From IMG/VR virus record IMGVR_UViG_3300021387_000661, positions 160,001-224,000 of that record: 64,000 nt of DNA, one strand, 5' to 3'. Shown here one piece after another: positions 24,446-27,514 of this stretch (its first letter is position 1; the number at the start of each line of letters is the position of its first letter). The notes under the pieces were generated by a model. It did not search any database and was not told the DNA's origin. It saw nothing but the letters and a program-made list of their open reading frames with translations. The position numbers and the translations under genes are program-made. The stretch comes from a virus. Taxonomy: Duplodnaviria > Caudoviricetes.

Positions 24446-24478
24446 ATACTCTTTACTATATATTTATGAGAATAAAAA

Positions 24479-24528: not shown

Positions 24529-25428
24529 TTATGTTGTTAAAATGTACCAGGCACCAGACATATCTTTAAGTTCTTGGATTATGTTTTCTTTCTCTGTTGA
24601 ACCTTCATTGGCAATTGCCTCAACATTGACAGATATATTACCTGGCATCTGATATGAGAATGCACCAAGGATTCTACTCAACTGGACTTTACAGTCAGCA
24701 ATAACATATCTACGGAATAGGTCATCATTATACAAATCACAATCAGGAACTCTCACAAGTACATCAAGAATGACATCACTCTTTGGAAGTTCACCAAGGA
24801 ATCTCAAATTGTTTGTCAACCTGTTATATTTGAAGGAGATCATATTCTGGAAGATTTGTCTTGATATATCCAGGAATGCCTCTGTACAGATATAGTACAT
24901 GGTATTGTCAGCAGAGACTGCCATAGTCCTGTCATATACAGACTGATAGACCATCCTATGAAGACTTACATCACCGGAGTTCTTACCAAGGAGACCAGTG
25001 TTCCAACCACTTTCGCCGGACCACCCCCCCAGAGAATAAACACCAACTACAGAAATAACACCGTCTGGAAGAACATATGTCCCTCTTGTATGTCCAGTAT
25101 TGGGTTCTTTACCTTCTCCTTTCTTGAATTTTGCTGTTACCTTATTATCTCCTGGACCATCCATGGAATGAATACCCCTCTGGAATGAATGCTTTCTTAT
25201 TTCTGATTCAGGTATGGCTATAAACATTTCTTCAGACGCATCCTCATAACTTTTGTAGAACATTGTCTTGGCATTTTTAGTCAACTGGGCAATGGATTCA
25301 GCAGGGATGGTAAAGGGTATTGCACCATTCACAGACATTTCATTTTGAATACTCTCAACAAAGTCATTCAGGCACTCAACCTCATCTATATCAGAACAAT
25401 TAACTAATGTACTTACTTTTGATGCCAT
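24529..25428 (-). CDS. neck protein (T4 gp13-like)
   Basis: C-terminal YVIADCKVQLSRILGAFSYQMPGNISVN...EGSTEKENIIQEL resembles gp13; late motif at 25458-25451. Confidence 0.65.
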   Translation of the reverse strand: MASKVSTLVNCSDIDEVECLNDFVESIQNEMSVNGAIPFTIPAESIAQLTKNAKTMFYKSYEDASEEMFIAIPESEIRKHSFQRGIHSMDGPGDNKVTAKFKKGEGKEPNTGHTRGTYVLPDGVISVVGVYSLGGWSGESGWNTGLLGKNSGDVSLHRMVYQSVYDRTMAVSADNTMYYICTEAFLDISRQIFQNMISFKYNRLTNNLRFLGELPKSDVILDVLVRVPDCDLYNDDLFRRYVIADCKVQLSRILGAFSYQMPGNISVNVEAIANEGSTEKENIIQELKDMSGAWYILTT

Positions 25429-25430
25429 AG

Positions 25431-26396
25431 TTATAATTTACTTATATAAGTATTTATGATACTTTTACATTCATTAATGTCTGTTGTAAATACTTCCAAA
25501 TAATTTAATTTATTTTCTTTTGCAATAGTTCTTTTATTAACATCCCTGACTGTCCAATTATATATTGCTTCTGTGTAAAATTTTGTATTCTTATTTTCCC
25601 ACAGTTTAATTTTTTCTAAATCATCTGGATTGGATTTATTAAATGGATGCCTTCCATGTGTCCAGGATCCTTGTATTTCTATATATAATTTTAATTCTGG
25701 TATGTAAAAATCACAAGAAAATGGATATGAATTATCTTTATGTTGTCTTTCAACAGATGGGTATAATTCTTTCAACCAATTATAACAATCTGTTTCAATT
25801 TTTGATGTACCAAATGTATGATTTTTTCTTTTTGTTTCAAATTCATGTTGTTTCCTTTGTTCATTTATTTCAATAGAATATTCTTTCCACTTTTTTGTTT
25901 TTGCATAATTATTTACACCATATTTTTCTATACAAGTATCTGCTGCTTTATTTCTATTGTTATAATTTCCATTACCATATTTTAATTCTTTAGTTTGATA
26001 ACTATGTTCTTTATGTCTTTCAGATTGATTAACACATTTTGTACTACAATATTTTTTATATCCTTCCTTAAATGATTCCATAGTACATCTTTTCCCACAA
26101 ATTGGGCATATACCCAATCTTAATTCATAATCATTTTGAAGAAAATGCCATAATTTTTGACAAAATCTCCAAGTCTTTGATTCCTCTGGAAATGAAATAC
26201 CTTTATATTGTTGATATAATTCTGGAAAGAATTTCAAAAATCCACCATTTAGTTTGTTATTAGTATAAGATTCACAAACTAAATTACCACTTTTATCTTT
26301 ATTTAATTTAGTAAGAAAATAGAACACATCAGATTTATTTGTTCTATCAAAAGATTCAGGAAAACCATAGTCTTCCAAAGAATTAAACTTTTTCAT
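25431..26396 (-). CDS. free-standing homing endonuclease (zinc finger, EKYG repeats, PD-(D/E)XK/Vsr-like C-terminal domain)
   Basis: CPICG...YCSTKC, LKYG/EKYGVNN repeats, CDFYIPELKLYIEIQGSWTHG. Confidence 0.75.
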   Translation of the reverse strand: MKKFNSLEDYGFPESFDRTNKSDVFYFLTKLNKDKSGNLVCESYTNNKLNGGFLKFFPELYQQYKGISFPEESKTWRFCQKLWHFLQNDYELRLGICPICGKRCTMESFKEGYKKYCSTKCVNQSERHKEHSYQTKELKYGNGNYNNRNKAADTCIEKYGVNNYAKTKKWKEYSIEINEQRKQHEFETKRKNHTFGTSKIETDCYNWLKELYPSVERQHKDNSYPFSCDFYIPELKLYIEIQGSWTHGRHPFNKSNPDDLEKIKLWENKNTKFYTEAIYNWTVRDVNKRTIAKENKLNYLEVFTTDINECKSIINTYISKL

Positions 26397-26454
26397 AATT
26401 ATCGGTTAATTTTATATAGAAGGAGACTGCCAGATCTCCTATACTATATTTATG

Positions 26455-26553
26455 AAAAATGGGAAATGAAATCAATCATTTCCCAATAGAGTTTGACTTG
26501 AAACTGGCATTTACAAGTCATTGTGGAATAACCGATAAGACCACAGAACTCTT
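26455..26553 (-). ncRNA. candidate small RNA with three-way junction and two loops antisense to the endonuclease leader
   Basis: Late motif at 26565-26558; closing stem 26488-93/26547-52; hairpins 26494-520 and 26522-545; terminator hairpin 26460-485 plus U5. Confidence 0.55.
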
Positions 26554-26560
26554 AATATAT

Positions 26561-27514
26561 TTATGATACTTTTTCCAATATAGGATTATCAACAACAGCA
26601 AGGAATGTGTCTATCAAATCCACAACAGACTTATTGGTAGGTTTTTTCTTTGGTTTGAGATATATCCTGGATCTAAGTCTTGATGTAGTAAGTATATAAT
26701 TATTACTCAACATCCTTTCCAAATTCACATATTTATCAAAAAGAGTTGGTGATGTTGCCATTGAAACAACACTGTTATCTTTTTTAGATATTTCTATTAT
26801 CAATGTCTTTATCCTACCACCAATGGATTCAATTGGTATGAATATCTCAATGATATCACTATCCGTTATTGATAGTCTTCCACCAATTTTTTCATTGATT
26901 TTCTTGCTCTTTGGTTGATAGTGTTCTGAAAGATATACAAAGAATTCTTCATAACCAAAATGGTCAATGTCATCCTCTTTCTTGATGTCAGAACCATTAC
27001 CTCTTTTTCTAATGTCACCCCATACAGATTCATCTATATTCTTTATTAGTATTGGTTTTTCTGCATTTGTAGATATGGTATCTATCACATCAAGAAGCAG
27101 TTTATTTGAAATAGTATTATCTTTTGATTTGATGTAACTTAAACCACTTGGATCTCTATATATTTTAAAATTATCTGTTAATTCTTTATAGAAACCTACA
27201 CATTCTTTCTCATTGGCAAACAAAATGATTTTATTTATATCGCCATCTGTATAATATGCAACAAGTCTATGAACATTATATCTATACATAAACATTGGTA
27301 ATGAAAAATATAGATAATTATTTTCTGTACTACTTTTTAATGGTAATACATGTACATTTGGATCTTGATGATATATTGTATATATATAATCAAACATATC
27401 ATCTCTATCAAGATGTTCAATATCATCCTCTTTTTTGACATCAGTTCCATTACCTCTTTTCCTAATGTCATTCCATACTGATTCATCTATATATGTCTTA
27501 AAATCTGGTATCAT
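26561..27514 (-). CDS. leader-module polyprotein (2 units)
   Basis: MIPDFKTYIDE|SVWNDIRKRGNGTDVKKEDD; internal IDE|SVWGDIRKRGNGSDIKKEDD. Confidence 0.85.
   Translation of the reverse strand: MIPDFKTYIDESVWNDIRKRGNGTDVKKEDDIEHLDRDDMFDYIYTIYHQDPNVHVLPLKSSTENNYLYFSLPMFMYRYNVHRLVAYYTDGDINKIILFANEKECVGFYKELTDNFKIYRDPSGLSYIKSKDNTISNKLLLDVIDTISTNAEKPILIKNIDESVWGDIRKRGNGSDIKKEDDIDHFGYEEFFVYLSEHYQPKSKKINEKIGGRLSITDSDIIEIFIPIESIGGRIKTLIIEISKKDNSVVSMATSPTLFDKYVNLERMLSNNYILTTSRLRSRIYLKPKKKPTNKSVVDLIDTFLAVVDNPILEKVS

Follow-up and report, generated by a model that had tools for sequence, protein, structure and literature searches.

The 64,000-nucleotide (nt) stretch of DNA analysed here, hereafter the window, covers positions 160,001 to 224,000 of the IMG/VR virus record IMGVR_UViG_3300021387_000661, a phage of the Caudoviricetes. 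The full record has 344,746 base pairs (bp) and a G+C content of 35%; its genetic code is the standard one, and its completeness is put at 94%. The runs that hold the stretch are animal gut metagenomes (goat, bovine, pig and sheep). On its minus strand, the window encodes a homing endonuclease of 321 amino acids (25431-26396). Just upstream of this gene and on the same strand, we identified a compact unit that is predicted to produce a small RNA with two loops complementary to the leader of the endonuclease mRNA.

Read along the minus strand, on which all features below lie, the unit opens with a putative promoter core, CATAAATA (P1, 26558-26565), that overlaps the stop codon of the upstream gene. 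Five nt later begins a closing stem, AGAGUU/AACUCU (26552-47 with 26493-88), which encloses two hairpins. Hairpin A (26522-26545) has the stem UGUGG/CCACA and the 14-nt loop UCUUAUCGGUUAUU (26540-26527), and hairpin B (26494-26520) has the 13-nt loop UAAAUGCCAGUUU (26513-26501). These are followed by an intrinsic terminator with a stem of 10 pairs, a 6-nt loop and U5 (26455-26485; hairpin 26485-26460), one of two sites recovered by a terminator scan where 0.5 were expected. The RNA bounded by these signals, from the closing stem to the U-run, would be ~97 nt long (26455-26552). A second CATAAATA core with a consensus downstream TATA (P2, 26447-26454) abuts the U-run of the terminator; the corresponding element of P1 is TAAG, not the weakly conserved TATA, so that P2 is the nearer to consensus. 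Downstream of P2 is a leader hairpin, AGGAGA-UCUGGCAG-UCUCCU (26421-26440), the predicted 5' end of the endonuclease mRNA, and then the endonuclease AUG at 26396, which is not preceded by a Shine-Dalgarno sequence. The 191-nt region as a whole folds at -50.2 kcal/mol, compared with -30.5 +/- 3.9 kcal/mol for shuffled versions (z = -5.1; 0/200 as good).

Both hairpins of the predicted RNA have a partner in the leader. The pairing bases of loop A, UUAUCGGUUA (26538-26529), are a perfect 10-nt complement of UAACCGAUAA (26399-26408), which ends 2 nt before the AUG; the duplex has a predicted energy of -12.3 kcal/mol, and its two strands lie ~120 nt apart with the terminator between them. None of 2000 shuffles of loop A gave a 10-nt complement in the 31 nt up to and including the AUG. 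The endonuclease leader is also the sole complement of loop A of at least 9 nt in the 345-kb genome, the loop's own opposite strand aside. The second contact is shorter, with UGCCAG in loop B (26509-26504) complementary to CUGGCA in the loop of the leader hairpin (26433-26428).

We compared the window with nine metagenome loci (L016, L017, L019, L021, L025, L027, L045, L046 and L162; L017 is identical to L018, and L020 is cut at its 5' end). The same module, consisting of P1, hairpins A and B, terminator, P2, leader hairpin, target and AUG, occurs in all ten loci. Six of them have a nearly identical scaffold, yet loop A and the stretch before the AUG vary jointly. Loop A and target read UUAUCGGUUA and UAACCGAUAA in the window, UUAUCGGUUA and UAACCGGUAA in L016 (with one G·U pair), UUCGGUUGU and ACAACCGAA in L017, AAAUGGUUAUUUU and AAAAUAACCAUUU in L019, AACUGUUAUU and AAUAACAGUU in L021, UCAAACUAUUAUU and AAUAAUAGUUUGA in both L025 and L027, GGUUAUUUUA and UAAAAUAACC in L045, UAAACUAUUAUU and AAUAAUAGUUUA in L046, and CUACUAUUUGU and ACAAAUAGUAG in L162. 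These eight distinct versions are all complementary, over 9-13 Watson-Crick pairs (10 in L016 including its G·U). The gap from the target to the AUG is 2-7 nt throughout. L021 and L162 use an AUG that is four codons 5' of the one in the window, and their targets are displaced along with it; the target of loop A follows whichever start codon is used.

Because the variable loops are not registered with their targets in the MAFFT alignment, pair counts from it were not used for the long-range contacts and alignment-free tests were applied instead. The cognate assignment of loops to targets is the unique best of the 40,320 permutations of the eight non-redundant versions. By length of complementarity, each loop pairs best with its own target or with the target of a locus that has an identical loop (in L016, when G·U is counted), and shuffled loops match the observed length in 0-21 of 2000 trials across the loci, with the exception of L016 without its G·U. 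Cognate duplexes have energies of -10 to -16 kcal/mol and non-cognate ones are mostly weaker; by this measure L021, L025, L027 and L046 cross-react, and the L021 loop has a better score with the L025/L027 target than with its cognate one. From length and energy together, the pairs of L025, L027 and L046 (with L021 by energy) are predicted to cross-react, those of L019 and L045 to do so in part, and the others to be orthogonal. For the second contact, loop B and the leader loop read UGCCAG/CUGGCA in nine loci and UGUCAGA/UCUGACA in L019, which amounts to one compensatory change. An earlier note on this DNA, made from the letters alone, had laid out this minus-strand arrangement and both contacts and had proposed covariation of loop and target as a check. 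Its coordinates and sequences hold base for base, both contacts are real complementarities with compensatory change (eight covarying versions for loop A, the single change in L019 for loop B), and loop A does covary with its target, complementarity being kept in every locus.

In L046, the endonuclease gene (L046:1201-2185) is split into open reading frames of 203 and 142 amino acids and is probably decaying; its leader hairpin is weakened. Despite the split gene, loop A of this locus still matches its target over 12-13 bp.

Complementary arms of 10-13 bp that lie ~120 bp apart around P2 could also function as an inverted repeat in DNA, either as half-sites for a protein or as an invertible promoter switch. 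Invertible switches, which Bacteroidota commonly have, are recognised by inverted repeats on either side of a promoter. Arms that one protein or one recombination event requires to be alike would co-vary too, and CTGGCA and TGCCAG are a single duplex motif in opposite orientations. However, the pairings in L016, L019, L046 and L162 include G·U pairs, which are mismatches in DNA and arise only if the gene strand is read as RNA, a pattern that fits RNA pairing and not a DNA inverted repeat. Further, every left arm is located in a hairpin loop whose stem covaries, every right arm ends 2-7 nt short of the AUG that is used, and the ten assembled loci all have the same orientation. No strand-changing joint was seen within 26399-26540 (the only 'goes back' joint, at 27451-27485, has low depth), and no recombinase gene is adjacent. 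We consider a DNA-level role of the repeat very improbable.

The scaffold that presents the loops is conserved as a structure. A covariance model of the unit (R1) matches the ten loci with 95.9% of cells paired and 14 of 28 pairs changed on both sides, counts that come from an alignment fitted to the model and thus biased towards the structure. None of 500 shuffles showed local-stem covariation as good, and slid controls were only 37-53% paired. In the terminator, 7/10 stem pairs are changed on both sides, 100% of cells are paired across loci, and four distinct stem sequences are each followed by U5-6. The stem of hairpin A reads GUGAGG/CCUCAU in L019 and AUGUG/CACAU in L045, and the stem of the leader hairpin reads AGACAA/UUGUCU and AAGGU/ACCUU in the same two loci. 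All ten loci have the P1 core, L019 with its divergent upstream gene among them; in the window, the element downstream of P1 departs from the weak consensus. The P2 core sits between loop A and the target in 10/10. We also considered a small peptide, since a 23-codon open reading frame runs through hairpin B and the terminator of the window, and rejected it because the frame starts with CUG in L027 and has 3 codons in L046.

Matches to R1 are confined to this position in the genome: the phage has one copy, with no second copy detected in it, and the records of four related phages gave no match. Scanned for hairpin B, for the leader hairpin and for P2 followed by a TCTGRCA loop, IMG/VR returned chance matches only, and IMG/VR locus searches seeded with the endonuclease and the upstream protein found nothing. 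In a scan of JGI metagenomes, two of five matches were true loci. The 64-kb window has no Rfam match at gathering score (at a lax threshold, the best match has 21.9 bits against a cut-off of 49 bits), and a scan for tRNA and tmRNA found none.

The RNA unit travels with the endonuclease gene. The protein has an N-terminal domain, a Zn-ribbon and a C-terminal PD-(D/E)XK-like core, and it matches phrog_3339 'homing endonuclease' at 6.8e-8; against the Pfam family DUF7487 it scores 20.5 bits, below the gathering cut-off of 27. It has 236 relatives in metagenomes, many with precomputed PF24308 matches, and the residues that are invariant among them (C97, C100 and C117 of the Zn-ribbon; D229, E240 and H247) are intact in the window protein. 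Downstream lies a resident gene for a gp13-like neck/adaptor protein (24529-25428; phrog_211 at 1e-12), whose counterparts in relatives match PF26809 Phage_T4_gp13. The CATAAATA core of this gene (P3, 25451-25458) falls inside the last endonuclease codons and is encoded by the conserved C-terminal codons I-I-N-T/N-Y-I (window 25451-25470).

In two loci, L009 and L010, the gp13-like protein is 90% identical and the whole block is absent. The empty site of L010 runs from the end of the upstream gene (window 26638-26558) through a single TCATAAATA into the leader of the gp13-like gene (window 25459 on), and in L009 similarity likewise starts at the promoter core. The empty site in L010 marks ~26557-25459, that is the RNA unit, terminator, P2, leader and endonuclease gene, as an insertion between two promoter cores. 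On this comparison the segment is a free-standing homing-endonuclease cassette in the promoter region of the gp13-like gene. Relatives of the endonuclease (61-83% identity) are placed just before the gp13-like gene in other phages, and the phage itself has four paralogous endonuclease genes (six matches). The empty site, the paralogues and the phrog_3339 match support the earlier note in calling the downstream gene a homing endonuclease. Were the cassette lost imprecisely, an essential structural gene would be left without its promoter, a means of retention that is known from T4 segG and gene 32. A 16-nt repeat, AAAAGUAUCAUAAAUA, is present at both borders, but elsewhere only the 9-nt promoter core is kept, and we make no claim of a target-site duplication. 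Compared by eye, the homing site in L010 has no resemblance to the loop A or target sequences, so that an autorepression operator is not supported.

From these data we propose, with a probability of roughly 60%, that the cassette encodes an antisense RNA that blocks the initiation of nuclease translation, in trans on transcripts from P2 and in cis on read-through transcripts. The earlier note had left the choice between a separately transcribed antisense RNA and a long-range cis switch, either of which would limit a toxic nuclease, and the comparison supports that interpretation. The first ~100 nt of the cassette would then be a full transcription unit with promoter core, folded RNA and terminator, and the RNA would display two single-stranded loops on a compact stem junction. 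Loop B (UGCCAG) would make a kissing contact with the hairpin loop at the 5' terminus of the endonuclease mRNA that starts at P2. Loop A would pair over 10 bp, or 9-13 bp in relatives, with the A/U-rich, unstructured stretch that ends 2-7 nt short of the AUG. As this stretch is within the landing zone of the ribosome, the duplex would block translation initiation. Read-through transcripts would form the same contacts in cis. Nuclease output would be low and would drop further with rising genome copy number. Judging from the ten loci, the loop A and loop B pairings and the terminator are under selection; we infer that P1 is active, that the terminator sets the end of the RNA, and that the RNA acts in trans and represses.

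The same pairing could instead work in cis only, as a silencer of the T4 type. In that case it would matter only on read-through from P1 or from the upstream late operon, the P2 mRNA would be translated freely and the short RNA would be inert. This is the documented logic of the T-even homing-endonuclease genes I-TevI, I-TevII, I-TevIII, segB and Aeh1 mobE, in which leader structures sequester the ribosome-binding site and a promoter lies inside the inhibitory structure (PMC2988022), as the earlier note had stated for T4. In agreement with a cis silencer, each of the ten loci has P2 placed between loop A and the target, the contacts are nested in the order A...B...B'...A' that a cis fold requires, and the minimum-energy fold of the whole region in L021 pairs the loop A segment with the target. 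One RNA-library contig that spans the terminator and P2 is weakly consistent with it. However, P1 and P2 have the same core, and thus the temporal switch of the T4 design is missing. A strong, covarying terminator between the partners means that most of the loop-bearing RNA should end short of the target, and the contacts are displayed in the loops of stable hairpins, as is typical of trans antisense RNAs and unneeded for a cis hairpin; both features favour a discrete RNA that acts in trans. The position of P2 between the loops and the target also has the consequence that P2 transcripts could be controlled only in trans. In L019, where the upstream gene is divergent, a co-directional operon cannot supply the RNA, yet the locus retains P1 and a match of 13 bp, or of 17 bp if G·U is counted. 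A purely cis-acting silencer is possible but, in our assessment, rather doubtful.

Several points weigh against the antisense RNA that we favour. The ten loci are related and six have a near-identical scaffold, which makes for a small sample. The loop B contact is thin, with 6-7 bp and a single compensatory event, and a CUGGUA leader loop is found in two paralogues that lack the RNA unit, so the motif may have a role independent of loop B. As P1 and P2 share their core motif, the sequences suggest no obvious temporal logic, and P1 may be the weaker promoter, with TAAG instead of TATA. The RNA-library data, from one RNA-seq run (X19) and three further 'RNA' runs of doubtful nature, are assembled contigs at a depth of 2-7 in which DNA may be included. 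In X19, P2 is spanned by two contigs (26297-26455 and 26328-26516) and the terminator by one of these, which fits read-through RNA and DNA equally well.

The two paralogous endonuclease genes just mentioned lie elsewhere in the genome (G000, minus strand), with ATG at 84958 and 69520 and promoters at 85038 and 69597. In both, the CATAAATA core precedes a leader hairpin at the 5' terminus. The stems of these two hairpins covary (AGAGGA/UCCUCU and AGAGCAG/CUGCUCU), and each loop contains UCUGGUAAA. Promoters followed by TCTG[GA][CT]A number only three in the genome, those of the window gene and of these two paralogues. Loop B could pair with the CUGGUA of the paralogues through one G·U, and it might therefore act on them in trans.

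Lineages of the endonuclease at other insertion sites (L022, L043 and L044) are without such an RNA. The neighbouring gene is IMPDH-like in L022 and L043; L044 follows a gp23-like gene. The leaders of L022 (1420-1500) and L043 (1130-1205) carry a longer 5' hairpin, AGGAGAUG/CAUCUCCU and AGGGGAUG/CAUCCCCU, respectively, with loops of 16-17 nt that are unrelated to that of the window; the RNA unit is absent upstream of them.

The earlier note had also raised the idea that the RNA is bound by the nuclease and targets it through its two loops, in the manner of guide or bridge RNAs. In its favour, a mobile nuclease gene carries the RNA at its 5' end, and the two loops have locus-specific sequences. 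This idea found no support: both complements fall on one strand within the mRNA leader of the cassette itself, not at element ends or in the empty homing site, and the combination of Zn-ribbon and PD-(D/E)XK-type core is unlike the RNA-guided families. Paralogues in the same genome and related metagenome genes also lack such an RNA. We give a guide function next to no weight.

The promoter cores on which the proposed transcription unit depends belong to a genome-wide motif. ATAAATA occurs at 71 sites in the genome, at a median distance of 24 nt 5' of the ATG of open reading frames of at least 80 amino acids; in 69% of the sites it is preceded by C, with a T-rich run before that C. In the window, matches to the motif are nearly all on the gene strand (21 matches against 8.5 expected). 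Genome-wide, the motif is frequently placed straight after a hairpin and T-run, and conservation of its downstream TATA is weak. From this distribution, CATAAATA behaves as a promoter signal throughout the genome. The T4 late promoter is TATAAATA, which the motif resembles. If the T4 spacing is valid here, both RNAs would begin at the base of their own first stem. A typical gene boundary in the phage consists of a hairpin, a T-run, CATAAATA and an ATG 20-30 nt further on (examples on the minus strand of the window are at 24468, 25458, 29823, 34154 and 38508). The endonuclease genes are exceptional, with leaders of 45-110 nt against the usual 20-30 nt.

The surroundings of the cassette vary. 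A 1321-nt contig (X17) matches 25459-26553 with 13 differences and continues past the P1 side for ~226 nt that are unlike the window; by this contig, the same cassette may adjoin a divergent or different upstream gene in another sample. L019, from a 338-kb relative, has a different gene order upstream of gp13, with a divergent NT5C-like gene and its TTTGTTATATTTA-type promoter on the opposite strand, and a TnpB/IS605 OrfB-type gene (L019:304-1503) ~1 kb upstream of the cassette. In L017 (2498-4064) and L045 (2403-2674), a second, longer DUF7487 protein (~640 amino acids) is encoded just 3' of the gp13-like gene. The L017 protein has a weak Mom match. In such relatives the gp13-like gene is flanked on both sides by endonuclease genes.

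Covering the initiation region of a homing-endonuclease mRNA is a principle known from T-even phages. As in their leaders, the RNA pairing described here covers the endonuclease initiation region (2-7 nt before the AUG in ten loci), and a promoter predicted to be T4-late-like, P2, lies between the pairing halves. The promoter of the downstream resident gene is likewise inside the endonuclease gene (P3), as in T4, where the promoter of gene 32 is embedded in the segG coding region (PMC2988022). The design differs in other respects. The partners are ~120 nt apart in hairpin loops instead of forming a local contiguous hairpin; they are separated by an intrinsic terminator and a promoter of the same class; and there are two contacts instead of one, with no Shine-Dalgarno sequence involved. 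In T-even phages the upstream and internal promoters are of different temporal classes, whereas P1 and P2 share the CATAAATA core. The arrangement is thus a tandem promoter-to-terminator RNA unit with two long-range loop contacts that are maintained by compensatory change.

By analogy, the logic seems closer to that of IS10 RNA-OUT, type I antitoxin RNAs and two-site kissing regulators. In IS10, a mobile element encodes a small stem-loop RNA; through its loop, this RNA pairs with the mRNA for the element's own enzyme, over the 5' end and the initiation region, and limits that enzyme (multicopy inhibition of transposase), as we propose here for the nuclease. Unlike the unit described here, RNA-OUT is transcribed from the opposite strand of the same DNA, so that its complementarity to RNA-IN is automatic; in the phage cassette the RNA is in tandem on the same strand, and complementarity has to be kept by compensatory mutation, as observed. 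The type I toxin-antitoxin pairs tisB/IstR-1, shoB/OhsC and zor/orz share with it a small RNA gene that adjoins the controlled gene, short complementarity of imperfect length to a 5' leader, and a potentially harmful protein under control; their small RNAs are divergently transcribed chromosomal genes. OxyS-fhlA, CopA/CopT and RNAI/RNAII offer parallels in the two separate short contacts made by hairpin loops, one of them over the ribosome-binding region, and in a loop-loop kiss as the likely first step. Here only the B contact would be loop-loop, and loop A would meet an unstructured stretch. OxyS is also a global regulator, in contrast to an RNA with a single complement in the genome. In IS110-type bridge RNAs and RNA-guided nucleases the loops correspond to target DNA and element ends, and not, as here, to the element's own mRNA leader.

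The cyanophage S-PM2 provides a phage small RNA linked to a homing-endonuclease gene, CfrI (Millard et al. 2010, cited in PMC12197685). CfrI is a true antisense transcript opposite the psbA/F-CphI region, with neither a loop-to-leader design nor a demonstrated translational control. In the literature we found no description of a cassette RNA of the present kind, only the T4 hairpins, the autorepression of I-TevI and the CfrI antisense RNA.

To our knowledge, homing endonucleases are the commonest selfish genes of large phages. The brakes known for them are local hairpins at the ribosome-binding site, autorepression and weak terminators. What would be new for this class is a cassette that carries its own promoter-to-terminator RNA unit, and two loops that are held complementary to the nuclease mRNA by compensatory evolution, with both the unit and the matched loops moving with the element. 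The eight natural pairs of matched loop and target are a ready test set for orthogonality in reporter assays, and such pairs could serve as compact programmable translational repressors. The unit also indicates that regulatory RNAs of uncultivated gut jumbo phages are detectable from DNA alone. A further, unlikely possibility is that loop A and its target act as a private 'address', diversifying on a nearly constant scaffold, such that rival cassettes in competition for one homing site upstream of gp13 are each controlled by their own RNA only. If true, this would parallel the incompatibility groups of plasmid antisense RNAs, and in a mixed infection a cassette could silence a rival with the same address; for homing endonucleases, it would then be the first description of a specificity or immunity system that is based on RNA.

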